DNA of 64,000 nt from a bacterium (GTDB taxonomy: Bacteria; UBA8248). Of this stretch, positions 18,286-31,924 are shown one piece after another (positions within the stretch are counted from its first letter, which is position 1; every line of letters starts with the position of its first letter). Below the pieces are notes generated by a model. That model was not told the DNA's origin, made no database searches, and was given only the letters and a program-made list of their open reading frames with translations. The stretch is from assembly GCA_965221165.1 (NCBI GenBank), contig CBDCRP010000003.1, forward strand, positions 1,600,001 through 1,664,000, written 5' to 3'. A program made the translations under genes and the position numbers.

Positions 18286-18619
18286 TGGATATTCTCCTTC
18301 AGTGGGGTGAGGTGGATAATGGACTGACCAAGTATGGCTGATGAGTTTTTCCTTTGTGTAAACGTCATCCACAGGTGCTCCTCGTGGATGGCGAATCTCA
18401 GGGAAAACCTCAACTATCGGCCTTTGCCGATTCTTTGTTCTCGGTATGATTGCCCAATCCAAGGATAATGAGCGAAAAACCTGATGTCAACAAGAAACTA
18501 AATGCCGGCAAGCCATTTTCACCTCTTTGGGGTATCCTCATCGCCTGAAGGAACTCTGTTTCCGGCATGTCCGCCGATAAGGACGGGTGTGGCCTCATCT
18601 ATCCATTCGGGGTTGCGGG

Positions 18620-19828
18620 ATGAGTCGAACAGCGTGGGACGCCATCGTGGTCGGGGGCGGCATACTCGGTCTTTCCACCGCCATGGAGATCACCCGCCGC
18701 CACCCCGAAAAGCGCGTCCTCGTCCTCGAGAAAGAAGCCGGCGTCGGCCGCCACCAGTCGCTCCACAACAGCGGCGTGATCCATGCGGGACTCTACTACC
18801 GCCCAGGCTCGCTCAAGGCGAAAACCTGCGTGGAGGGCGCGGCCGCCATGGTGCGCTTCGCGCAGGAGCACGGAATCGACCACGAAATCTGCGGCAAGGT
18901 GGTCGTCGCCACGAACGAGGCGGAAATCCCACGGCTCGAGGAACTACGCCGCCGGGGCGAGGCCAACGGCATCGAGAACATCGAGGTTCTGGGGCCCGAG
19001 GCGCTCGGGGAAATCGAACCCCACGCCTGGGGCGTCAAGGCCCTTCGGGTGCCCTCCACGGGCATCATCGACTATGGCGCCGTCGTGCGCGCCTATGCCC
19101 GCATCATCGAGGCGGGGGGACAGAAGATACAGACCTCAGCGCAAGTCACCGGAATCAGCATCGCAAGGGGAGAAAAACGGGTCGAAACCACGGCGGGGGA
19201 TTTCGGCGGAAAACTCATCGTCAACTGCGCGGGGCTTTACGCCGATAGAATCGCCAGGCTCGCGGGCGGTGCGCCGCCGATGAAGATCGTGCCCTTTCGC
19301 GGCGAGTATTACGAACTCACGCCCGGGCGCCGCGCGCTCGTCAAGAGCCTGATCTACCCGGTGCCCGACCCGGCGTTTCCCTTCCTGGGCGTACACTTCA
19401 CCCGCCGCGTGAACGGGAGCGTGGAAGCCGGGCCGAACGCCGTTTTGGCCTACATGCGAGAGGGTTATACGAAAACCAGAATCAACCCCTACGACCTGCT
19501 CGAAACCCTCACCTACCCCGGCTTCCTGAAGCTGGCCCGGAAATACTGGAAGGTGGGTCTGGGCGAGATGGTCCGCTCCATGAGCAAAGCCGCCTTCACG
19601 CGGGCGCTGCAAAAGCTAATCCCTGAGATTCGGGAATCGGACCTCGTGCCCGCAGGCGCGGGCGTTCGCGCGCAGGCGGTGAACAGGGACGGCGGCCTGC
19701 TCGATGATTTCTCCATCATCAGGACGGAGGGCGCGGTCCACGTGTGCAACGCCCCTTCGCCGGGGGCGACGGCATCCTTGATGATAGGCCGCGCCATCGC
19801 GGACATGGCGGAGGAGATGGCGGGCTGA
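18620..19828 (+). CDS. lhgO: L-2-hydroxyglutarate oxidase
   Basis: GGGILG, HNSGVIHAGLYY, PFRGEY, FPFLGVH, GVRAQA and NAPSP. Confidence 0.9.
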   Translation: MSRTAWDAIVVGGGILGLSTAMEITRRHPEKRVLVLEKEAGVGRHQSLHNSGVIHAGLYYRPGSLKAKTCVEGAAAMVRFAQEHGIDHEICGKVVVATNEAEIPRLEELRRRGEANGIENIEVLGPEALGEIEPHAWGVKALRVPSTGIIDYGAVVRAYARIIEAGGQKIQTSAQVTGISIARGEKRVETTAGDFGGKLIVNCAGLYADRIARLAGGAPPMKIVPFRGEYYELTPGRRALVKSLIYPVPDPAFPFLGVHFTRRVNGSVEAGPNAVLAYMREGYTKTRINPYDLLETLTYPGFLKLARKYWKVGLGEMVRSMSKAAFTRALQKLIPEIRESDLVPAGAGVRAQAVNRDGGLLDDFSIIRTEGAVHVCNAPSPGATASLMIGRAIADMAEEMAG

Positions 19829-19973
19829 CCCCCTATATGCCCCAAGAGGGGGAATTATCATATAAAGACATATATATCAACAGGTTAAATTTTCCGATAT
19901 TTTCACTTATTTTTCACTTATTTTTCGAATTTTTCACCCATTCCGCGCGATCATCATGACGGTAAATGGAGGG

Positions 19974-20033
19974 TCAAACCCGACCGATGAGGGAGGGTTT
20001 GCGCCTTTCGTAGGTCGGACATATATGTCTGCC
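19974..20033. repeat. 29-bp spacer unit (25/29 identical to 21497-21525) plus GTAG-type REP (20010-20033)
   Basis: TCAAACCCGACCGATGAGGGAGGGTTTGC vs TCAAACCCGACTGATAAAGGAGGATTTGC; GTAGGTCGGACATATATGTCTGCC palindrome. Confidence 0.65.
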
Positions 20034-20171
20034 ACCTGCGTGTCCGCCCACACATATATGCGTCCCGCGCCCCTTCGCCCCCAAAACATGGGCCGATGGG
20101 GTGGACGCCCCCTTCCGGCAGCATCAGAATGTGGCGAGATGACGTCACACACCGCCCGGAAGGAGGCATCC

Positions 20172-21197
20172 ATGGAAGGAGTCTACATCATCGGTATCGA
20201 TCTGGCGAAACACAGCTTTCAACTCCACGGCGCGCGGGCGGGCGGTTCGGTCGCGTTCCGCAAGAAGCTCGGCAGGACGAGGATACTGGGCTTTCTGGCG
20301 TCGCAGCCGCGTTGCGTGGTGGCGATGGAGGCGTGCGCGGGCGCGCACCATTGGGGCCGGGCGATCGGGCGGCTCGGTCACGAGGTGAGGCTGGTGCCGC
20401 CGCTCTACGTGAAGCCCTTCGTGAAGCGCCACAAGAACGACGCGGCGGACGCGGAGGCGATCTGCGAGGCGGCCACTCGGGCGACGATGCGCTTCGTGGC
20501 GGTGAAGAGCGAAGCGCAGCAGGCCCAGGGGATGCTGTTCCGCACGCGCGATTTGCTGGTTCGCCAGAAGACGCAGACGATCAACGCGTTGCGGGGTCAC
20601 CTGGCGGAGTTCGGGGTCGTCGCGCCGCAGGGGCCTGTGGGCCTCACGCGGTTGGCGGCGGCGGTTCGTGGAGCGGAATCGGGGCTGCCCGTGGCGGTTC
20701 GGGAGTTGGGCGAGATTTTTCTGGAGCAAATCGCCGGTCTGAGCCGGAAGCTCGGGGAGTTGGACAGTCAGCTTCGCGCGAGCGCCTGCGCGGACGAAGA
20801 GGCGCGGCGTCTGATGCGGGTTCCGGGAATCGGTCCGGTAACGGCGTCGGCGCTGCGGGCCTTCGCGCCTCCGATGGAGAGCTTCCGGCGGGGACGGGAC
20901 TTCTCCGCCTGGCTGGGTCTGGTCCCCCGGCAGCACTCCACGGGGGGCAAGGCGCGCCTGGGGAGGGTATCGAAGATGGGGCAGCGTGACGTGAGGCGGC
21001 TGTTGATCACGGGCGCGATGTCGGTGATTCGCCAGGCGGTCCGGCGCGGCGCGCCGCCGGGTTCGTGGTTGGCCCGGATGCTCGCGCGCAAACCGAGGAT
21101 GCTCGTCGCGGTGGCGCTGGCCAACAAAATCGCACGCGTCGCCTGGGCGCTGATGAAGAACAAGGACGACTACAGGGAACCGGCGCCCCTCGTCTGA
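20172..21197 (+). CDS. IS110 family transposase/recombinase
   Basis: IGIDLAK, MEAC, KNDAADA (DEDD RuvC-like) and GLVPRQHSTGGK (Tnp Ser). Confidence 0.95.
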   Translation: MEGVYIIGIDLAKHSFQLHGARAGGSVAFRKKLGRTRILGFLASQPRCVVAMEACAGAHHWGRAIGRLGHEVRLVPPLYVKPFVKRHKNDAADAEAICEAATRATMRFVAVKSEAQQAQGMLFRTRDLLVRQKTQTINALRGHLAEFGVVAPQGPVGLTRLAAAVRGAESGLPVAVRELGEIFLEQIAGLSRKLGELDSQLRASACADEEARRLMRVPGIGPVTASALRAFAPPMESFRRGRDFSAWLGLVPRQHSTGGKARLGRVSKMGQRDVRRLLITGAMSVIRQAVRRGAPPGSWLARMLARKPRMLVAVALANKIARVAWALMKNKDDYREPAPLV

Positions 21198-21551: not shown

Positions 21552-22868
21552 TTAATACTCGAACACCGTGGGGCCGTCCACTTTTTCGGTCAGCGCAGAG
21601 GCGGCGGCGCGGGCGGCTCCGAGGCGCCATTCGCGCTCGGCCTCGGGCGTCCGGGAGGGGTCGCCGAATGGATGGTGAAAATGCCCGGCGCGGTTGTTGA
21701 CGATGCGGTTGACCCCGATGTCGCGCGCCACGTCGGGCAAACAGGTGACGATGACGGTGGGGATGCTCTCCCGCTCCAAGGCTCTCGCCAGCGCAGCCCC
21801 GCTGCGCGTGCCGGTTCCTCACGTGGCGGGGAGCACGACGCCCTCTACCCCGGCCTTTTTGAGTTCGGCGGCCCAGGCGCGGCCGATGCCGTCCATCTCG
21901 GCGAAGGCGCCGCCGTTCCCGCAGGTGCTCAGGAAATCATCGTGGAGTTCAGCGATTTCACCCTCGCCCTCGAGCCGCCGGAAGGCGTCCACGGCGAGCA
22001 TGCGGTCGGGCTCCTCGTTCACGAACACGGTGTTGAAGCCGCCGTGGATCGAGATGAAGGCGCCGCCCGAAAGGGCGTCTTTCCCCTCGAATGAGTAGGT
22101 GGCCCAGTTCTCGTTTCTCGAGCCAGCGAAGCGATCCGGGTTGCCGGGGGGGACCATGCCGCCTTCGGATACGATGGCAATGCGGGCTTTCTTGAGATCG
22201 GGGATCGGCTTAGGCGGAGCTATCTCTTCCAGAACGGGAACTTCGAGTTCGGTCTGGTAGGGCTCGCCCCTGATTTTTTTGAGGACCATATCGACGGCGC
22301 GCCGCGAAGTCGGAAGCTCGGCGATTTCGTTGTAGCGGATGCCGCGCGGGAGGTAGCCTTCCTCGGCGGCGTTTCCGACCCTCTCGCCCCGGGCGAGCTT
22401 GAGCCCCAGGCGGGCGGCGGCTTCCAGGGCCGCTTCCATCCCGGCGGCGGACTCTGCGGCGGAGACGGTGTGAACGCTGGTTCCGGCGGCGGGGAAGCCC
22501 GGATTCTCAGGGTGCATGGCGGTGACGACGGGAACGCCCGCCTCCTGCCCGGCGCGGCAGACGGCGGCGCAGGCGAGCCCGTAGCGCCCCGCGTTGAAAG
22601 CGGGCCCGGCGAGTAAGAGATCGGGAGAAAATTCCAGAATCCGCGCGATGGCCTCGGCGGCGCAGGTTTTTTCGTTTTCGGCGAAAAGACCATCGCCCGC
22701 GAAGACGGTAGCGATAACTTCGGCGTCCTCATTCAGTATCTTATCGAGCAATACGCCGGGGCCGACCGGGCCGGGCCGGGAGGATACGGGATGATCGCTC
22801 ATCTCCTCGCCCCCGACGCCTGCGAAGAACTGGTTCAAGTAGTGAACGACCCGAAGTTTACCGCTCAT
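21552..22868 (-). CDS. grdB: Glycine/betaine/sarcosine reductase selenoprotein B (GrdB-like), Sec at codon 350 (TGA 21819-21821), variant motif T-U-GTGTRSG
   Basis: VVHYLNQFFAGVGGEE, GPAFNAGRYG, MHPENPG and HGGF; in-frame TGA joins 21819..22904 with 21552..21779; SECIS hairpin. Confidence 0.88.
21791..21818 (-). promoter_or_regulatory. Putative SECIS element of grdB-like gene
   Basis: GCGCAGC-GGG-GCUGCGC stem starting 11 nt after UGA. Confidence 0.7.
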
Positions 22869-22928
22869 GGCCTGGCCTCCTGATATGAACTCATTCAAAT
22901 ACATATTCGGAATAAGTAGTTATGGGCT

Positions 22929-23204
22929 TTAATCGATATACCTGAAAATGTGCGCCTGTTCGATCGTAATTTTGCCTTCGAGCCAAATGTAGGATTTGCT
23001 AAAGATTTTATCAAACGCTTCACGTGCTCGCTTTGACGTTGCTGGAGATTGTAGCTTTCTGTTTCCCCAGCAGAATAACCAGCATATTCGTTGAGGTATC
23101 CCTTTTTTATTCCATCTAGTACCAATGCCTTTTTGGAACGTTTTGTGGGTAATTCCTGAGAAGATTTTGATTGCTTCTCGTTCTGAAACTTTCATTCTAA
23201 TCAT
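22929..23204 (-). CDS. AT-rich basic hypothetical protein inserted between grdE-like and grdB-like genes
   Basis: Open frame with AAGGGG RBS; markedly lower GC than neighbours. Confidence 0.5.
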   Translation of the reverse strand: MIRMKVSEREAIKIFSGITHKTFQKGIGTRWNKKGIPQRICWLFCWGNRKLQSPATSKRAREAFDKIFSKSYIWLEGKITIEQAHIFRYID

Positions 23205-23360
23205 TCTCAACCCCCTTATCCGTTGCTCCTAATACCAGGTAATAAAGGCTGCACAAGGCCCTTGTGAGACCATCCGTCTATCCGCGAGAGACGCCGCCTA
23301 ACTATGAACCGCCCCGCATTTTCCGCCGTTTCTCGGTAATTCACGAGGACGCCCCCGACC

Positions 23361-24647
23361 TCAATACGCCTTGCCCACCATGTTGTTGATGTCCTTCGCC
23401 CATTCGCTGGCGTAGTAGTCGCTGTCGGCCAGGGTGAAGGCCTCGCGGACGTTGCATCTCTTGCCGTTGTAGAATTCGACGACCTCGGAGCCGATGACCC
23501 GCTCCACCGCGGGGGCGGCGATGCGCTCACCCTGCATGCCTTTGGAAATGACGGCGTCGGCCTCGGGCACATGAAAGACGAGCGGGAACTCGCCCGACCC
23601 CGGCCGGCCCACCTCGTAGATGATCGGAACGGCGCTCACGCCCATCTGCTCGAGCGCCTGGACGGTGAGCCAGTAGTCCACCGTGGAGTTGCCGCCGCCC
23701 TCGAAGGCGAGAACCGTGCCGTCGGCATTGAGGAGCGCGGCGAGCTTGGCCACGTATTGCGCCGAGCGCTCCTTGAGCGCCTGGTTGTCGTGGTGGCCGC
23801 GCGTGATGACCATGCCCGCGAAATTGAGGTCCACACCGTGGCGGCGGTAGAGTTCGTATATGAGCGGCATGTTGCAGTGCAGGTAGGTCGGCGCCTTTTG
23901 CTGCGTCTTGTAATTCGCCCCCACCACCGCGCCGTCGAGCATCTCGTTCGGGTGGATGAGCGTGGGAAGCGAATCCCCCAGATTCTTGCCGTACATGAAG
24001 GTCTGGACCATGGACGCCTGGTGCATGACCTGATCGACGAAAACAACCCGGGGCAGATCGGGCGCGGCGTCCCCGAGTTCGAACGTCTCAAAGCTCTCTG
24101 GTTCGAGTTCCGCCGTGTGCTCGGCCAGCCGGGATGCGATCTTCAGCGTCGCCAGGCGCACGGCATCGTCATGCGCTTCGTTCGAGGCGCCTTCCAGCGG
24201 CTCGTAGCAGGCGACGAGATTCGCGGTCTCCGAATTCGTGCAGTGCACGGCGCCGGGACCGGACATATCGATAATCCCTTCGCGAAAGCTCATGATGCCC
24301 GTCATGGGACCTAAGAAATGGGTGGAGCTGATGACGCACATACCGGCAAGCTTGTGGGTGCGGCCGGCGCCTGCGGTCTTCGCCGGACCGAGGAATCCGG
24401 GGAAAGCGCATGAGCGCCCGCTTACCTTGTAGAGAGGCTCCACAGCGTCTAAGACGTTGGTGATCCGCACCGAATCGCCCGGCATGGCGGCGTGAAAGCC
24501 GACGTCCTTGAGAGCGCCGTCTTCGAGCGCCAGTCTGCGGAGCTCATCGGCATCCACGGTGAGCGTATTGTCTTTGTATTCGAAGCGCTTTCCGAGGATG
24601 ATTTTTGATACGGGAAATATACCCATCTCCAGTCGCATGGACATCAT
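23361..24647 (-). CDS. Glycine/sarcosine/betaine reductase component B alpha/beta subunit (GrdE/GrdG/GrdI-like)
   Basis: PGDSVRI..VLDAVEP, GRTH.L.G, EGIIDMSGPGA, PTLIHPNEMLDGA, LNFAG and EGGGN. Confidence 0.88.
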   Translation of the reverse strand: MMSMRLEMGIFPVSKIILGKRFEYKDNTLTVDADELRRLALEDGALKDVGFHAAMPGDSVRITNVLDAVEPLYKVSGRSCAFPGFLGPAKTAGAGRTHKLAGMCVISSTHFLGPMTGIMSFREGIIDMSGPGAVHCTNSETANLVACYEPLEGASNEAHDDAVRLATLKIASRLAEHTAELEPESFETFELGDAAPDLPRVVFVDQVMHQASMVQTFMYGKNLGDSLPTLIHPNEMLDGAVVGANYKTQQKAPTYLHCNMPLIYELYRRHGVDLNFAGMVITRGHHDNQALKERSAQYVAKLAALLNADGTVLAFEGGGNSTVDYWLTVQALEQMGVSAVPIIYEVGRPGSGEFPLVFHVPEADAVISKGMQGERIAAPAVERVIGSEVVEFYNGKRCNVREAFTLADSDYYASEWAKDINNMVGKAY

Positions 24648-24656
24648 CGCCCCCCA

Positions 24657-25109
24657 CTACCCCGCCGTGCGCATATCGGCGAGGTCACTCTCGATCTGCG
24701 GTAGATCGAGCACCATTTCCATCATGAGAAGTTTATCGGCGTAAAGGTCCTCTGGAACCTGGGACCGCACCTTCTCTTCTAAGATGTGAAAAACGGGGAG
24801 TCCCAACGAGACTCCCGCCAGGGGCCCGGCCCAACTGGGGTCCCCGGTGGTCAGCGTTTCGGCCGCGAGCCGAAGGCCTTCACCGGGCATTCCCAATACC
24901 ACCATCAAATTCTCCGGCCCGACCTCATCCGCAATCGATTTGATGGCGGCCTGGTTTTCCAGGTCCATGGCGCCTGCGGAGGTTCAGACGAAACACTCCG
25001 TCTTCTGGAACACGACCTCCGCTCCCGCCGCCTCGAGGCATTCGGCAATCAGCGGACCGGGAACGCCGTCCCGCTCGCCCAGCGCAATCACCTTCTTGCC
25101 TTTGAACAT
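24657..25109 (-). CDS. grdA: Glycine reductase complex selenoprotein A, C-x-x-U (TGA 24984-24986)
   Basis: Readthrough gives [19 protein letters not shown]...[17 protein letters not shown], then [24 protein letters not shown]. Confidence 0.93.
24943..24983 (-). promoter_or_regulatory. Putative SECIS element of grdA
   Basis: AUGG-A-CCUGG-AAAA-CCAGG-CCG-CCAU hairpin downstream of UGA. Confidence 0.6.
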
Positions 25110-25146
25110 GAACATCCTCCCGCTTGCACACAAAAAAACGAACGAA

Positions 25147-26565
25147 TCACCCTTCTATCAATACCGAAGCCCCGTCGGCCTGCTGGGACATCCGGCCCAG
25201 AAACAGACTTCCTTTCGCCACAACCATTGTACTCCGAAGGAGGCCGGCCCGCATCCTCTTAAGAGCGTGGCCGAGAAAGGGAACCCCTGCGGGGATGTGC
25301 CCCTGCGTAGGCGCGAATCCGGGCATCCCGTGCGCCTCGATAAAATCCGGAATCTCCTCGCGGGCTATTTCCCCGTCCATGACCGCCATGGCGGCCAGCA
25401 TTCTGTAATTCGCAGCCGCGACGTCTCCCGCCCCCGCAGGCAGCATGACCTCGGGGTTATGCAGTTCGACGGCGTACTTATCGACGCTGGTCAACTTGCG
25501 CCCGGCCCGGGCCAGTGGGTCCCGCACCAGAGCCTCCGCCAACCCTTGCGGCGTGGAGGGCTTCCCCGCCGCGTGGCGTCCCGCGATTTCAAGATTCACA
25601 CGGGGGCTATCCTTTGAATCACGGGAGAGAAAGAAAGCCACCCCGCCCAATACATCTTCTAAAACGGGCATCTCTTTTTCCAGATGGTAGTACGCCTTCA
25701 TCCCGAGCTTCGCCATCGAGCCGCCTCCTACGACGACGGCGTTTCCGAGGACGCCCGCCTGAATCAGGGCCGCCGCGTGTATGAGCGCGTACACCGGAGC
25801 CGCGCAGAAAGACTTCACGTCGACGCCGGCGGCATTCACGCAACCCGCCATCTCGGCGATGGCCTTGGCGAGATTGCCTCCACCGCGATTGTAGCGATCC
25901 CCGACCGCCTCCTCGGAGCAACTAATGACGTACTCTATCGCGTCCGGTGCGATGTTTTCGCGCACGAGAAGGCGGCTGAGAGCGTATGCGCCGCTGGCCT
26001 TGGCCGCCAGGTTTTCCAGAAGAATACGGGCATCAAGCGATTCGTCGGAATCATGATCGCGGCGAATGCACCCCATGAGGCCTTTATTCTGAAAAAGAGG
26101 CAGGGCCTCCCCTCGCTCGATGCGCCGGAAAATGTCTTCTTGACGATGTTCCTTTAGGGGTTTTTCTCTTTTGAGAAGTGCGGAGGCGGATTCCGAACAT
26201 GCGATACCCGGAACATGACGCTCCGCATCGAGCATGATCAATCCGAATTGATCGGCCGCTTCTAGAAGGGAGTAGAAAGAATCCTGCGGGAGGATTTCCC
26301 CGAAAGCGCCCTCAGGCGAAGCGCCTGCGAGGGAATTCTCGTACCAGGGCGAAGAAATTTCGCTTAAATTCTCGGGAGGAAGATTGCCGATGAAAGCCTG
26401 ATTCGGCGCATAGCCGACTGCTTCGTCAAAAGACCTGAGATCGGCGAATACGTCGCCTGGCGCCTGATCCCTCCTTGAAGTTTCGCGCCAGGGTTTCGAG
26501 CCGTAGCGAACCAGATCGGGAACATGAACGAGAACGTTCGCCGCCGCACGTAGATACGCAGTCAT
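25147..26565 (-). CDS. grdC: Glycine reductase complex component C beta subunit (FabH-like)
   Basis: [65 protein letters not shown] and KGSLFLGRM. Confidence 0.9.
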
Positions 26566-26755
26566 ATCACCCGCCACAAAAGGAGGAAGGAAAGACAAAA
26601 GGGGCATTCGTACCGGAAATTACATGCAGCATCATCTCACTTGGGAAAAACCATTCACCACACGTTTTTTTCAGCGTCCGCCCTGTTTTCCCACAAACGC
26701 ATCCAGGCCGGGGTTTCATCATAAAGGTCGGCCCGAGGGTTGCCGGAAAACCCCA

Positions 26756-27433
26756 TCAGCCCCCGGGCCGGTAGGCGCTCTCGGAGGGGTCGGACTTTCG
26801 CCACCGGCGGAGGAGCTTTCCACCCCGGTAGGCCGCCTCGTAGGGGCCACCGGGCGTCAATACCACGAGGGGCTTTTTCCGTCTGCTCATCTTCTGGCGA
26901 TAGAGCCTGCTTTGCTCGATATACAGTTTGCGCTCTGCGGGCAGCAGTTCGAAAAACCGGTTAAAAAACCCCAAGAATTCACCGACGAATTTTTTCGTCG
27001 CCACGCGGTGGCGATCCACGAGGTAGCACTTCCCCTCCAGCACCCGGTTGTAGACCAGGCCCAGAAGATTCTCCTCAGTATCGAAATAGGGTTCATAGGG
27101 AAACGTGCGGCACGAGACGGAGCGGTTTTCCCGCTCGCAATGCGCTACGCCCCGGCATTCGATGAAAACGCTCTGCTCCGCGTCGACTTCTTCTACCAGC
27201 GCGAGTTCGGATGGCGAGCGCGGCCTGAACTCATGCCAAAGCCGCGTGCGGGGTTTGAGAAACTTCCACTCCTCGCGGTAGGCGACGGGAACCACCCAGC
27301 CCGAATCACAGCAAAAAGGAACCCCCTCGTTGAAGGGCGCGCACTTTTTCCCGCAGTCGAACCGCGCGGGCGGACTCGCAAAGCCCGAGTAGAGGGCCTC
27401 GAAGTCCTTTGGCCGCAAGCGCGTCTTGTTCAT
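26756..27433 (-). CDS. Cys-rich hypothetical protein (possible Zn/Fe-chelating, YkgJ-like)
   Basis: DCGKKC, FCC, ECRGVAHC and CRTFP motifs. Confidence 0.6.
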   Translation of the reverse strand: MNKTRLRPKDFEALYSGFASPPARFDCGKKCAPFNEGVPFCCDSGWVVPVAYREEWKFLKPRTRLWHEFRPRSPSELALVEEVDAEQSVFIECRGVAHCERENRSVSCRTFPYEPYFDTEENLLGLVYNRVLEGKCYLVDRHRVATKKFVGEFLGFFNRFFELLPAERKLYIEQSRLYRQKMSRRKKPLVVLTPGGPYEAAYRGGKLLRRWRKSDPSESAYRPGG

Positions 27434-27442
27434 CTTTTCTCT

Positions 27443-29023
27443 CTACTCCTCATCTTCGCTTGCGTCTTCAGGCGAATCCGCCGGGCGCGCCCCGGGAGCG
27501 CCGGCCTCCGCGGCGAGGGACCAGGCCCGCGATATCGCCACTGCGGCTTGCTGAAAGAGGATGGCGCAATAGTCGACCTCATCATCGGGTATCTCTCGCG
27601 GCGTATCGAAGTAAAAAGAGGCCACCCCCACCGCTCTTCCCAGGGCGACCATCGGAAAGACCACGGCTCCGCGCACCTTTTCGATCTTGAGCGCCTCGGG
27701 CGCGTCGTACCACGCATCGATAGAGGGCACCTCGACGATTTCTTTTTCCCGGAGCGCGATTCTCTCCGGCAGACCCGAGGCGGGCGAGGCCAGGCCGCGC
27801 CGGTAGGCCTCGCCCAGGCGCGAGGAGCATAACTCCAAAAACCTGTCCACCCCATCGTCATACAGAGCGACGTAATACCTGTCGGTCGAGACGAAACGGG
27901 AGACTTCCCCCGCGACGGCGATGATGACGTCGCGAAAGTGCGCTCCGCCCGCCACCGATTCACTCACCCTGGAGATGAGCGCGAGTTGCTCCGAACCAAG
28001 CTGCCGTCCGGAGACCGCCTCCCCCGTCTGCGCTTCGTCCGTCCGGCGGACTGCGGGTTCGCTTCCGCTGCGGACCCCGAGAAAATAGAACAAGGCGAGG
28101 GATACGAGCCAGCCCGCCGCCAGCACGACGTCCAGTATCTTCAGCCCACCCCCTAAGTCCGCCATCCCCGAGCGGTCCGCCACGTGGACGAGGCGCAATT
28201 CCCTCACGCCCATCGCGAATATGGACTGCGCCATCGCGCGCTCATTCCGGTTCGCGGCGTTGAACGCGGCGGGGTCGCAGCAAGCCGGAATATCGAGGGC
28301 CGGGGCGAGTCGCCTCCTGAAAGCCCCGGCGACGCTGTCCGCCAGGAATTTCTCTCCTTGCCTGGCGAAGAGAATTTTCTGCTCGGGCTCGAGCAAGACA
28401 AAGACGCTCTCGCCGGGAACCAACGCACTCTTTCGCAGGGGCAACAAGGATTCCGCTGAAATGATGACGCCCCAAAAACCTTCGGTGGACGGCGAGGAAG
28501 CCAACAGAAAAACAACCGGCACGCCGCCCAGCGTGCTCGATTGAATATCGAACTTCCCCCTCGCGGGTTTCGCCCCCCTCTCTCGCCTCGACAACGAGAG
28601 GAACGAACGCCTCGCCCCCGCCCAGAGACCTCTTTCCTCGGGCCCCACCGCCGGCATCTCCCCCACCCTGCGCGAGCCGACAATCCCGCCTTGCTCATCG
28701 AGCAGCACCGAGGCGGCGAAGGAGTCGCGAGACTCCCCGCCCAGGAGGAACGAAAGCGCTTTCCCCACCCTCCTCGGGCCATCCGGAGCCGCGGCCATAA
28801 GCAACTCGGCCCCCCGGATCTTTCCGAGCAGGGCGTCGACGCGGCCTTGCATTCCGGCGCCGAAATCCTGCAGACGCCTCGCGTCGCGCTGCGCATACCG
28901 GCTTAGGACCGCACCCCGGTCGGCCCGGTGGGCGAAAAACATCGCAACCGCCGCGAAGAGGGCCGTGACAAGCGCAAAGAGCAAGAGCGGGGAAATTGAT
29001 TTTTTGGAATTTTCATCCATCAC
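27443..29023 (-). CDS. Membrane protein with periplasmic region and C-terminal GAF domain
   Basis: Two TM helices around a large loop; C-terminal VVFPMVALGRAVGV is GAF-like. Confidence 0.6.
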   Translation of the reverse strand: MMDENSKKSISPLLLFALVTALFAAVAMFFAHRADRGAVLSRYAQRDARRLQDFGAGMQGRVDALLGKIRGAELLMAAAPDGPRRVGKALSFLLGGESRDSFAASVLLDEQGGIVGSRRVGEMPAVGPEERGLWAGARRSFLSLSRRERGAKPARGKFDIQSSTLGGVPVVFLLASSPSTEGFWGVIISAESLLPLRKSALVPGESVFVLLEPEQKILFARQGEKFLADSVAGAFRRRLAPALDIPACCDPAAFNAANRNERAMAQSIFAMGVRELRLVHVADRSGMADLGGGLKILDVVLAAGWLVSLALFYFLGVRSGSEPAVRRTDEAQTGEAVSGRQLGSEQLALISRVSESVAGGAHFRDVIIAVAGEVSRFVSTDRYYVALYDDGVDRFLELCSSRLGEAYRRGLASPASGLPERIALREKEIVEVPSIDAWYDAPEALKIEKVRGAVVFPMVALGRAVGVASFYFDTPREIPDDEVDYCAILFQQAAVAISRAWSLAAEAGAPGARPADSPEDASEDEE

Positions 29024-30126: not shown

Positions 30127-30483
30127 GGCCACGCCCCTCTTGTTCAATGAAAATTCGCATTATTCAATATATCTATATTCAATTTCTATCATTGAGGCCA
30201 CTGCCGGGCAAGTCGAAAAGAACTATCGACGCATCCGGAGAATAAATTCCCCGCCCGGGAAACGATTCCGCCTCGCACGGACGCGATGCGATTCAGCCCT
30301 CTCTCAAATATCCTTTCTGCTCCCGGCGCACCCGGTTCCCCCGACGCCATTGATCATGGAACCCCGTTTTGCTAGGTTTGGCGGTCAGCCCGCTTGGGCG
30401 GAAACCATTCGGCGAGATCATCCTCCATCGATCCGGGCGGACGCGCATCGAGGAGGCGATTCGTTTTATCACTGGAGAGGAAA

Positions 30484-30891
30484 ATGGCGAAAGAAGAAAA
30501 AAACGAAGCGGAAGCCACCGAACAGGAAACAGAGGCTCCCCAAGAGGAAGCGGCGGCTCCCCAACGGGAAGGTCCCGTTTTAACGGCGAAAGAGATCGAC
30601 AAGATGAACGTGCCCAAGCTCAAGGAAGCCGCCCTGGCGTACGGCGGAAAAATCTCGGGCGTGCACGGGATGGACAAAACCCAGTTGATACGGGTGCTCA
30701 AGGAGACAAACGACATTCCATTGATCGAGGCGAGGCGCACTTCCAAAATCGACAGAAGCTCCGTCAAGCAACGGATCAAATCTCTCAAAAGCATTCGGGA
30801 CGAACACATCGAGGCGAAGGACGACGTTCAGCTCAAGCGCGTGAGAAGGCGCATCAAATCGCTTCGCAGAAAACTGGTGCGAACCGCCTAG
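30484..30891 (+). CDS. Small charged protein with Rho-termination-factor N-terminal-like domain
   Basis: DKMNVPKLKEAA...GVHGMDKTQLI pattern; coiled C-terminus. Confidence 0.6.
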   Translation: MAKEEKNEAEATEQETEAPQEEAAAPQREGPVLTAKEIDKMNVPKLKEAALAYGGKISGVHGMDKTQLIRVLKETNDIPLIEARRTSKIDRSSVKQRIKSLKSIRDEHIEAKDDVQLKRVRRRIKSLRRKLVRTA

Positions 30892-30904
30892 AGCGAATGC
30901 GGAA

Positions 30905-31924
30905 ATGAACGACGCTGCCTCGTCGGGAGAAAAAATGCCCGCAACGACATCATTGCCTCTTTCCTCAAACGGCGCTCCGAAATTCATAGACCGCATCCGG
31001 CGGGATGCGGCGCATCTGGAGCGCACGGAACTCTCCACGCTACAGGTCAACGTGGGCAAGTACTGCAACCAAAAGTGCGCGCATTGCCATGTGGGCGCGG
31101 GCCCGCACCGCAAGGAGATCATGACCGGGGAAACGGCGAGCCGCATCATCGAATGGCTCGAGGATACCCGAATCCCCAACGTCGACATCACGGGAGGCGC
31201 GCCTGAACTGAACCCCCACTTCAGGCGCATCGTCACCCGCGCCCGCCGCAAGGGCCGGAACGTGATGGTTCGCTGCAACCTCACGGTCGTGTATGAGCCG
31301 GGCGAAGAGGATTTAATCGATTTCTACCGCGAGAACCGGGTGGAACTCATCTGCTCGCTGCCTTGCTATCTCGAGGAAAACGTGAACGCCCAGCGCGGAG
31401 ACGGGGTGTTTGAAAAATCCATCCGCGCGCTCCGGGATCTGAACGAAGCGGGGTTCGGCCCTCCGGGAGATTTGCCCCTGAATCTCGTCTACAACCCCGT
31501 GGACGATCATCTCCCTCCCCCCCAGGAGGCGCTCGAGGCGGACTACAAACGAGAACTCCTCCGCCGCTACGGCATCCGCTTTCACCATCTCTACACCATC
31601 ACCAACATGCCCATCACCCGTTTCGCCAGTTATCTGAAGGTGAGCGGCAAACTGGATTCCTACATGGCCACGCTGCGCGAAGCCTACAATCCCGGGACGC
31701 TCCCCGGCCTGATGTGCCGAAGCCTCATCAGCGTGGGGTGGGACGGCGTCCTGTACGATTGTGATTTCAACCAGATGCTCGACATGTCCCTGGGCAACGG
31801 AACACCCCTGAAACTGTGGGACGTAGCACCCGCCGACCTGCTGGGCCGGGAAATTCTGCTGGGCGATCATTGCTTCGGCTGCACGGCCGGCGCGGGGTCG
31901 TCTTGCGGAGGCGCTCTGGCTTAG
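30905..31924 (+). CDS. arsS: ArsS-like radical SAM protein (DUF3641), Cys form
   Basis: CNQKCAHC, DITGGAPE, YDCDFNQML and HCFGCTAGAGSSCGG. Confidence 0.8.
   Translation: MNDAASSGEKMPATTSLPLSSNGAPKFIDRIRRDAAHLERTELSTLQVNVGKYCNQKCAHCHVGAGPHRKEIMTGETASRIIEWLEDTRIPNVDITGGAPELNPHFRRIVTRARRKGRNVMVRCNLTVVYEPGEEDLIDFYRENRVELICSLPCYLEENVNAQRGDGVFEKSIRALRDLNEAGFGPPGDLPLNLVYNPVDDHLPPPQEALEADYKRELLRRYGIRFHHLYTITNMPITRFASYLKVSGKLDSYMATLREAYNPGTLPGLMCRSLISVGWDGVLYDCDFNQMLDMSLGNGTPLKLWDVAPADLLGREILLGDHCFGCTAGAGSSCGGALA

Follow-up and report, generated by a model that had tools for sequence, protein, structure and literature searches.

A glycine reductase-like selenoprotein operon with a divergent B component and no GrdD in a probable member of the Nitrospinota

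Glycine reductase and its relatives (Grd) are textbook enzymes of Stickland fermentation and of the reductive glycine pathway, characterized by a pyruvoyl group, two selenoproteins and the formation of acetyl phosphate. According to the literature of Andreesen and Stadtman, the amine forms a Schiff base with a pyruvoyl group of protein B, for which a GrdE cysteine is the source, the carboxymethyl group moves on to the selenocysteine (Sec) of GrdA, protein C takes the acetyl thioester, and thioredoxin re-reduces GrdA. GrdD is a PlsX-like subunit, which makes acetyl phosphate. Betaine reductase is not known to need a pyruvoyl group, since a quaternary amine cannot form a Schiff base. Here, we describe a Grd-type operon in a stretch of 64,000 nucleotides of bacterial DNA (assembly GCA_965221165.1, contig CBDCRP010000003.1, positions 1,600,001 to 1,664,000; hereafter, the window), from a bacterium that, judged by the record names of close relatives, belongs to the Nitrospinota, a phylum known for aerobic nitrite oxidisers. 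The operon represents a conserved system, which keeps the selenoproteins of the family but is without the pyruvoyl-forming cysteine and the acetyl-phosphate subunit.

The operon and its B component

Four co-oriented genes on the minus strand belong to Grd families by NCBIfam and Pfam models, and two of them contain an in-frame TGA, which bears out what the original prediction had described at this locus:

25147-26607, minus strand: grdC, component C beta subunit, 486 amino acids (aa) (NF040746, 580 bits against a cut-off of 450; Pfam domains DUF5940, ACP_syn_III and Thiolase_N); likely true start M15 at 26565
24657-25133, minus strand: grdA, selenoprotein A (NF040748, 202 bits against 130; PF04723); UGA at 24986-24984 giving U50 in the motif C47-F-V-U50 (C-x-x-U); likely true start M7 at 25115
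23361-24647, minus strand: GrdE-like alpha subunit of the B component, 428 aa (PF09338, 357 bits)
21552-22904, minus strand: GrdB-like selenoprotein of the B component (TIGR01918, 412 bits against 65); UGA at 21821-21819 giving U362 in the motif PAT-U-GTGTRSG; likely true start M13 at 22868

The start codons were chosen from database homologues and model alignments. GrdA and GrdC pass the equivalog cut-offs of Grd components A and C; the GrdE-like protein passes PF09338 only, and the GrdB-like protein passes the subfamily model TIGR01918 only. The order grdC-grdA-grdE-grdB is preserved across the loci fetched from family-level relatives. A sequence search of the Protein Data Bank (PDB) gave no match for the GrdB-like protein, the GrdE-like protein or GrdC.

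Both subunits of the B component had been predicted to deviate at catalytic positions, and alignments and motif tables agree that they do. The Sec motif of the GrdB-like protein is UGTGTRSG as against the canonical UGTCTRCG, the pattern U-x-x-C-x-x-C being absent, while in the GrdE-like protein Asn245-Tyr246 (GAN-Y246-KTQQK) aligns with the Asn-Cys of canonical sequences, whose cysteine we take to be the pyruvoyl-forming site, and TRGHHDN is found in place of T-NENV. Canonical pairs, with ST-U-GTCTRCGATM in GrdB and SGN-C-VSACDKNTTY in GrdE, are present in two GrdD-carrying loci and in many GrdD-less ones; the GrdB proteins of loci L105 (724 bits) and L055 (653 bits) exceed the GrdB equivalog cut-off of 602, and UGTCTRCG also occurs in L111. 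The B component of the window scores below the cut-offs of the models for GrdB (TIGR01917, 390 bits against 602), GrdF (NF040794, 415 against 800), GrdH (NF040795, 353 against 775), GrdG (NF040793, 262 against 780), FarE (NF053623, 131 against 675), PrdB (TIGR04483, 76 against 300) and PrdA (TIGR04480, 25.5 against 700), and no GrdI model is matched by the GrdE-like protein. The Bacillota class that was screened for GrdH yielded only GrdB-type proteins, below the GrdH cut-off.

Only two of the six sub-motifs of the published GrdB motif (PMC9751293) are kept in the GrdB-like protein of the window, which has AGD for CGD, IHGGFN for AHGGxD, RMLAVD for RV[IL]PxD and TCGNGGAF for TxGNxTxV; the published GrdF motif (IHGGYDR, TTGTGT) is absent from it. 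Of 66 B-like sequences, 10 match the full GrdB motif; each of these 10 is of the C..C type, and the 20 with UGxGTRSG are not among them. In the main text of Nobu et al. 2022 (PMC9751293), GrdBE are picked by this GrdB motif and neither GrdC nor GrdD appears; clades such as the UGxGTRSG type were filtered out by this selection. In a tree of B-like proteins (72 rows), the UGxGTRSG type forms one side of a branch with 98% support, whose 22 rows comprise the Nitrospinota family, a second grd cluster of the window genome and the Desulfobaccales loci L089 and L091. The B types of other Nitrospinota lineages combine UGTCNRCG with NGDY, or UGTCTRCGS with WAGFC. Judged by the model cut-offs, the published GrdB and GrdF motifs and the tree, this B component is unlike those of the characterised glycine, sarcosine and betaine reductases, in line with the uncharacterised Grd subtype that had been proposed. 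A substrate different from theirs, which was part of the same proposal, is likely, given the loss of the residues with which canonical glycine reductases bind an amine, and the quaternary amines or sulfonium compounds that had been suggested may be candidates. In the literature searched, no paper linked Nitrospinota to glycine reductase or betaine reductase, nor did any treat GrdI and GrdH together with the pyruvoyl group.

The two motif changes occur together. This was followed in 114 adjacent pairs of GrdB-like and GrdE-like genes taken from all locus sets, which were chosen by their GrdC likeness or by the motif itself and include many kin, so that the counts describe the pairing and do not test it. 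The residues at U+3 and U+6 of the GrdB-like protein are given below with the partner residue at the position of Tyr246:

G and S (window type), 49 pairs: Tyr in 48, Phe in 1, Cys in 0
C and C (canonical), 29 pairs: Cys in 23, Tyr in 3, Phe in 2, Val in 1
G and C, 23 pairs: Tyr in 16, Phe in 6, Cys in 1
S and C, 11 pairs: a gap, His, Pro, Gln or Tyr
Other residues, 2 pairs: Ile, Thr

A metagenome scan for DNA coding for the motif gave at least 119 stretches, and 80 metagenome loci among these contain 51 GrdB-like genes of the UGxGTRSG type. On each of three metagenome contigs (L189, L197 and L198) there are two GrdE-like/GrdB-like pairs, a sign that pyruvoyl-free B components may have been duplicated in a single organism.

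Both in-frame TGA codons look like real Sec codons. A TGA is present at the homologous position of the GrdB-like gene in 114 of the 114 adjacent pairs, and each of the two codons in the window is followed by a hairpin that is a candidate Sec insertion sequence (SECIS):

24950-24963, minus strand: CCUGG-AAAA-CCAGG, 23 nt after the grdA UGA, folded in 20 Nitrospinota-type loci
21789-21810, minus strand: core GCGCAGC-GGG-GCUGCGC, 14 nt after the grdB UGA, predicted in 17 of 18 Nitrospinota-type loci

Because the grdA hairpin coincides in part with the conserved codons for MDLENQ, its conservation cannot be separated from that of the coding sequence; the grdB hairpin shows a compensatory change from C:G to U:A in loci L049 and L050. 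The genome-wide check for selABCD that had been advised found tRNA-Sec, selA (564 bits), selB (384 bits) and selD; selA and selB are located some 16-20 kb ahead of the window, and selD (C2:975065-976027) itself has an in-frame TGA. Compared with the relative locus L038, the ratio of nonsynonymous to synonymous substitution rates (dN/dS) is 0.075-0.151 for the whole of each of the four genes, and 0.036 (88 codons) in grdB and 0.090 (108 codons) in grdA for the stretches after the UGA. The genes are under purifying selection, including the stretches that follow both UGA codons.

GrdC in genomes without GrdD

The original prediction had recorded that grdD and thioredoxin genes are absent from the locus, which is correct, and had called for both to be sought in the whole genome. 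For GrdD, the absence extends to the genome as a whole. The best match to the GrdD model NF040747 in the host genome has 20.8 bits against a cut-off of 350, and it adjoins fabH and is therefore probably plsX; a tblastn search with two verified GrdD sequences (564.6 and 558.1 bits) found nothing in the host genome. As positive controls, these two sequences gave the model scores just quoted, and a six-frame search of a whole Bacillota genome gave 558 bits; furthermore, GrdD stands beside grdC in 12 of 12 loci from the class of that Bacillota genome. Among 51 genomes of the phylum, 34 have a GrdC above the cut-off and none has such a GrdD; weak GrdD-model matches occur in 48 of the 51, and the verified GrdD sequences also weakly match the PlsX model. 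Acetate kinase (AckA) and Pta are absent from the host genome as well, and each was found in 1 of the 51 phylum genomes, the same one. With GrdD, AckA and Pta all missing, an acyl acceptor of another kind is favoured, and this part of the earlier proposal is likely to be right. Thioredoxin is another matter, as trxB (361 bits) and trxA (126 bits) are encoded outside the operon, elsewhere in the genome, and the lack of local trx genes, which had been singled out, is thus unremarkable. A thioredoxin-like match at C3:2058032-2058313 (minus strand; 39.9 bits, below the cut-off) contains one in-frame TGA and may represent a Sec-containing thioredoxin-fold protein.

The loss of GrdD had been regarded as a special feature of this subtype, a view that a wider scan does not uphold. 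With a GrdC alignment and one genome per species, the best 80 loci among at least 535 relatives were retrieved; they come from Nitrospinota, "Tectomicrobia", Desulfobacterota, Binatia, Burkholderiales, Actinomycetota, Chloroflexota and others. The 3' neighbour of grdC is grdA in 61 of the 80 loci, another gene in a locus without GrdD in 13, and GrdD in 2, both of them Bacillota, while in the remaining 4 the contig is too short beyond grdC to judge. GrdD is thus missing from 74 of 80 GrdC loci drawn from many phyla, including loci with bona fide GrdB, and a whole-genome search of four Desulfobacterota-named genomes found no GrdD either. Loci such as L055, L084, L097 and L100, from metagenome-assembled genomes named Desulfobacterota, Deferrimicrobiota and Nitrospira, combine canonical GrdB/GrdE with the absence of GrdD from the locus. 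No other conserved gene takes the place of GrdD in the Nitrospinota relatives or in 61 non-Nitrospinota loci. GrdD-less glycine reductase seems to be widespread and undiscussed; a literature search, judged by titles and the beginnings of abstracts, found nothing on GrdD-less Grd systems.

The 14 GrdD-linked sequences group as a single clade with 100% support in a 99-row tree of GrdC, amid GrdD-less proteins of diverse kinds, and the Nitrospinota family makes up a separate clade, again with 100% support. Several alignment positions follow this division: position 235 is Cys in 14 of 14 GrdD-linked and 0 of 85 GrdD-less sequences, position 239 is Asn in 14 of 14 as against Tyr in 85 of 85, and position 383 is Gln in 14 of 14 as against His in 69 of 85. 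The GrdD-less proteins also carry Lys304 (84 of 85) and Lys38 (83 of 85). Cys268 of the SFCAAP motif, on the other hand, is present in 99 of 99 aligned GrdC sequences, GrdD-linked ones included, and since it is found in all of them, this FCAAP cysteine, which had been suggested to serve a different acyl acceptor, marks no rewiring.

A confident AlphaFold2 model of GrdC (predicted local distance difference test score 87.6, predicted template modelling (TM) score 0.91) has its best PDB fold matches, at target TM-scores near 0.5-0.57, in SpoVAD, OleA, FabH, PqsBC and thiolases. They belong to the thiolase superfamily of Cys-thioester enzymes, and several of the matches (FabH, OleA, thiolases, BioZ) were solved with acyl-CoA. 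GrdC is accordingly modelled as a thiolase-fold protein with Cys268 as predicted nucleophile. In an hhalign comparison with the host FabH, only the Cys elbow was aligned, Cys268 with the FabH Cys motif, and weakly (probability 15.9%). The model has a single low-confidence loop, 234-242, which is the site of Cys235 in GrdD-linked GrdC, and we infer, as a conjecture, that this loop may serve the hand-over to GrdD in the canonical enzymes.

Host genome, neighbourhood and transcripts

The closest database homologues of the GrdB-like protein (81-94% identity) bear the record names Nitrospinae, Nitrospinaceae and Nitrospinota bacterium, and nearly all of them end at the Sec codon, with 349 aa. The host genome comprises 3.69 Mb in 3 contigs with 58.7% GC, and is estimated at 96% completeness with 8.5% contamination. 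It encodes a heme-copper oxidase subunit I (504 bits), and the window carries MlaA and an LhgO-like flavin adenine dinucleotide (FAD) oxidase; together, these argue that the host is no clostridial fermenter, in agreement with the original prediction. The surroundings of the operon comprise the following features:

18587-19828, plus strand: LhgO-like FAD oxidase
19956-21197, plus strand: IS110-family transposase (PF01548 and PF02371), about 350 bp downstream of the grdB-like stop
22905-23360, minus strand: AT-rich spacer between the grdE-like and grdB-like genes, 456 bp, 45% GC, containing the open reading frame (ORF) 'orfX' (22929-23210)
26756-27433, minus strand: cysteine-rich ORF of 225 aa directly upstream of grdC, no Pfam match
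27443-29023, minus strand: 526-aa protein with a C-terminal GAF domain, upstream of grdC
30905-31924, plus strand: radical S-adenosylmethionine (SAM) protein with DUF3641, preceded by a 165-aa ORF without Pfam match (stretch 30394-31924) and followed by MlaA
31947-32849: MlaA

The orfX had been counted among the genes of the cluster. It has no Pfam match, the spacer has no second copy in the genome and none in the relatives' loci searched, and the corresponding spacers of relatives range from about 50 bp to 2.5 kb; the spacer is therefore probably an insertion remnant outside the system, and orfX no gene. A promoter scan gave one promoter-like site within it (23014..22986). An Rfam scan of the window returned one tRNA only, and no riboswitch near the operon.

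Gene context provided no substrate clue, whether in the window flanks, in relatives or in metagenome loci. The flanking genes of the window (the 225-aa cysteine-rich ORF, the GAF protein, OppF, the TAXI-TRAP transporter, a CoA-transferase and LhgO) are not common to relatives, and neither the cysteine-rich ORF nor the GAF protein lies beside grdC in the relatives searched. On the plus strand beyond the IS110 transposase, the LhgO-like oxidase is followed by the TAXI-TRAP transporter. The radical-SAM gene was considered as a counterpart of FarC of fluoroacetate reductase and rejected, as it lies 4 kb away in the opposite orientation, carries a DUF3641 that points to a different role, and is without a match in the relatives' grd loci. 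In some same-genus relatives (L038, L040, L041, L042 and L044), a short-chain dehydrogenase/reductase (SDR) gene that the window lacks lies directly upstream of grdC, and a 447-aa ORF recurs in these loci, directly downstream of grdB in L038, L040 and L042; the SDR and this ORF possibly represent pathway context that is missing from the window. In the 52 metagenome loci of the same B type, no neighbour gene recurs, and in the 61 non-Nitrospinota loci the only common neighbours are ATP-binding cassette (ABC) transporter, IclR and TRAP genes, each in a minority of loci.

The second, paralogous GrdD-less grd cluster lies on the same contig, 180 kb away (C3:1442200-1446746; locus L002, 2890-11529), in the order IclR-grdA-grdC-grdE-like-grdB-like-tctCBA and with 41-50% identity to the window genes. 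Its motifs are SGNYKSAMK in the GrdE-like and PATUGSGTRSG in the GrdB-like protein, and the arrangement recurs at 97-100% identity in two same-genus genomes (L024 and L033).

Eight sequencing runs on record as RNA, from two studies, hold shares of 0.05-0.08 of the window, which are no evidence of habitat. In four of them, contigs are 90-98% alike on grdB, grdE and grdA, and thus represent sequences of relatives. One contig of 754 nt covers 24419-25174 across grdE, grdA and grdC, and another joins 22900 to 23354 (grdB-grdE), with 60 other letters replacing the spacer. These contigs leave grdC (about 25226-26600) almost uncovered, which has no bearing on its expression. They give a weak hint of operon expression in relatives, as DNA can be present in such libraries.

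Proposed mechanism, alternatives and described systems

Taken together, the operon may encode a functional Grd-type reductase that would cleave a substituted acetate, X-CH2-COO-, without a Schiff base, and whose acetyl unit would go from Cys268 of GrdC to CoA or water and not to acetyl phosphate; we give this reading about an even chance. With GrdA and GrdC intact, a carboxymethyl or acetyl unit should remain what the system handles, and as a tyrosine cannot become a pyruvoyl group, the substrate is probably X-CH2-COO- with an X that leaves without imine activation, in the manner of betaine reductase. The B component, formed by the GrdE-like and GrdB-like proteins, would bind this substituted acetate, and with Tyr246 in place of the pyruvoyl-forming cysteine there would be no activation of an amine through a Schiff base. 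The C-X bond would instead be cut by direct attack of a selenolate, that of U362 of the GrdB-like protein and/or U50 of GrdA, on a substrate in which X is already a good leaving group; with neither of the two cysteines left that follow Sec in canonical proteins, U362 would be a lone nucleophile. The carboxymethyl group would end on the Sec of GrdA, where Cys47 would resolve it, and GrdC would take the two-carbon unit as an acetyl thioester on Cys268. Without GrdD, AckA and Pta, release to CoA or hydrolysis would be the simplest fate of the acetyl group, which would then have no role in substrate-level ATP synthesis, and oxidised GrdA would be re-reduced by the TrxA/TrxB encoded elsewhere.

Several points weigh against this proposal. 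The 14 GrdD-linked GrdC sequences are a narrow Bacillota set, so that the columns which set them apart may mark descent and not function. A conserved Cys258, 12 residues after Tyr246, is present in the Nitrospinota and in the second cluster, and could in principle be an alternative cleavage site or an active thiol. GrdC alone might still form acetyl phosphate, or it might pass the acetyl group on, to PlsX or to some other enzyme. The estimates of 96% completeness and 8.5% contamination for the genome are a further caveat, although none of the 51 phylum genomes has GrdD either, and the heme-copper oxidase of the host sits oddly with an enzyme family known from strict anaerobes. Moreover, the comparison with the characterised GrdH/I, GrdF/G, FarB/E and PrdA/B used NCBIfam models alone, the roles ascribed to the pyruvoyl-forming cysteine, to GrdD and to a pyruvoyl-free betaine reductase are those given in the literature, and what is said here of this clade's substrate, of alpha-subunit cleavage and of the product is putative.

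A special case of the same chemistry, with the substrate named, is a betaine-type reductase that would convert glycine betaine or an onium analogue (dimethylsulfonioacetate) to a trialkylamine or sulfide and an acetyl unit, as GrdHI of Peptoclostridium does. It agrees with the alpha subunit having no pyruvoyl-forming cysteine, which GrdI is not known to have either, and with the retention of GrdA and GrdC, by which the product must be a carboxymethyl or acetyl unit. We nevertheless find it rather unlikely, because the GrdH score (353 bits against 775) is below those of the GrdF and GrdB models, both cysteines after Sec, which GrdH keeps, are lost, no betaine transporter recurs beside the operon, whether in Nitrospinota or among the 52 metagenome loci that share this B type, and the paralogous cluster adjoins a TctABC carboxylate transporter and an IclR regulator. 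Less probable again is a diverged but true glycine (or sarcosine) reductase, serving glycine catabolism or a reductive glycine route to acetyl-CoA, in which another residue or a cofactor would replace the pyruvoyl group. All four subunits do match Grd families, with GrdA and GrdC above equivalog cut-offs, Cys258 near Tyr246 could be the alternative, and the Desulfobacterota clusters of the L055 type, with a bona fide GrdB (653 bits against 602), indicate that a GrdD-less glycine reductase probably exists as such. The window protein, however, reaches 390 of the 602 bits of the GrdB equivalog and keeps two of six published sub-motifs, its type is paired with Tyr/Phe and never Cys in 49 of 49 cases where canonical-type partners have Cys in 23 of 29, and the clade is set apart by the branch with 98% support.

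Two further explanations concern the fate of the acetyl group and the state of the operon. The main chemistry might hold while GrdC alone, or a housekeeping PlsX, still yields acetyl phosphate for a use other than ATP formation via acetate kinase. PlsX appears to be present in nearly all phylum genomes (the weak GrdD-model matches in 48 of 51), the weak host match adjoins fabH, verified GrdD sequences weakly match the PlsX model, and CoA binding by GrdC is putative; but 50 of the 51 genomes lack AckA and 50 lack Pta, which leaves no known sink, PlsX is unlinked to the operon, and the GrdD-less GrdC are without the loop Cys235 seen in 14 of 14 GrdD-linked ones, all of which makes us doubt this variant slightly more than a true glycine reductase. 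That the locus is what remains of a horizontally acquired clostridial-type operon, now silent or in decay, is very improbable. The IS110-family transposase just downstream, the odd AT-rich spacer that splits grdE from grdB, and flanks that are not conserved among relatives would suit such an origin; against it, all frames are intact, dN/dS is 0.075-0.151, the UGA codons and the hairpins after them are conserved, GrdC passes its cut-off in 34 of 51 phylum genomes with the operon order retained in the loci fetched from family-level relatives, the genome also maintains a second paralogous cluster, RNA-library contigs of relatives fall on the genes, and neither frameshifts nor a loss of Sec machinery in most carriers is seen.

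Beyond the direct cleavage of a substituted acetate by this one operon, we tentatively put forward a broader view, which we consider less probable than the mechanism itself but more so than any of the alternatives above: there may be a large, overlooked non-Bacillota class of GrdD-less Grd systems, in which GrdC would pass acetyl directly to CoA and so feed carbon metabolism and not ATP synthesis. Within this class, pyruvoyl-free B components would have radiated, among them the clade with UGxGTRSG and Asn-Tyr, which occurs in Nitrospinota with heme-copper oxidase and is common in metagenomes, and which would cut the C-X bond of non-amine or onium acetates by a lone Sec and a conserved Tyr. If the proposed mechanism holds, "glycine reductase" annotations, and the conclusions on ATP yield or the reductive glycine pathway drawn from them, would be wrong for many non-Bacillota lineages. 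There would also be a new selenium-dependent activity cleaving C-X bonds, for which osmolytes, haloacetates and sulfo- or onium acetates are candidate substrates, and GrdC would be open to study as a stand-alone acetyl-transfer enzyme.

Among described systems, the glycine reductase GrdABCDE with TrxA/TrxB of Peptoclostridium acidaminophilum, Acetoanaerobium sticklandii, Clostridioides difficile and Desulfovibrio desulfuricans G11 shares with the window the C-x-x-U of GrdA, GrdC, a B component of a GrdE-family and a Sec-containing GrdB-family protein, and a likely dependence on the thioredoxin system, which the window genome encodes elsewhere; in the cluster described for D. desulfuricans G11, both C subunits stand together with Trx and thioredoxin reductase (TrxR) (PMC7547702). 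Unlike these organisms, the window genome has no GrdD, AckA or Pta, and its B component has Asn-Tyr for Asn-Cys, UGTGTRSG for UGTCTRCG and a GrdB score of 390 against 602. Betaine reductase GrdH/GrdI feeds the same GrdA and GrdC, and its alpha subunit is not known to be processed or to carry a pyruvoyl group, which probably holds for that of the window as well; compared by model score and not by motifs, the window protein differs from it (GrdH, 353 against 775), and no betaine transporter is nearby. For the use of a non-amine acetate by a GrdB/E-like pair, farACEB of Cloacibacillus porcorum comes closest as a precedent: its FarB/FarE pair is proposed to cut the non-amine C-X bond of a substituted acetate (PMC10838667). 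The window differs from this fluoroacetate reductase in its FarE score (131 against 675) and in having no linked FarA antiporter or FarC radical-SAM partner. Also close are the uncharacterised GrdD-less grd clusters of Desulfobacterota, Binatia, Acidimicrobiia, Burkholderiales and others found here. Most of them carry other B types, including the canonical UGTCTRCG with Asn-Cys (L055), and in the 72-row tree the only rows with UGxGTRSG and Asn-Tyr outside the Nitrospinota family loci are the second cluster of the window genome and two Desulfobaccales loci, L089 and L091; with the window, these GrdD-less clusters share grdC beside grdA, the absence of GrdD, and the Tyr239/Lys304/Lys38 signature of GrdC.

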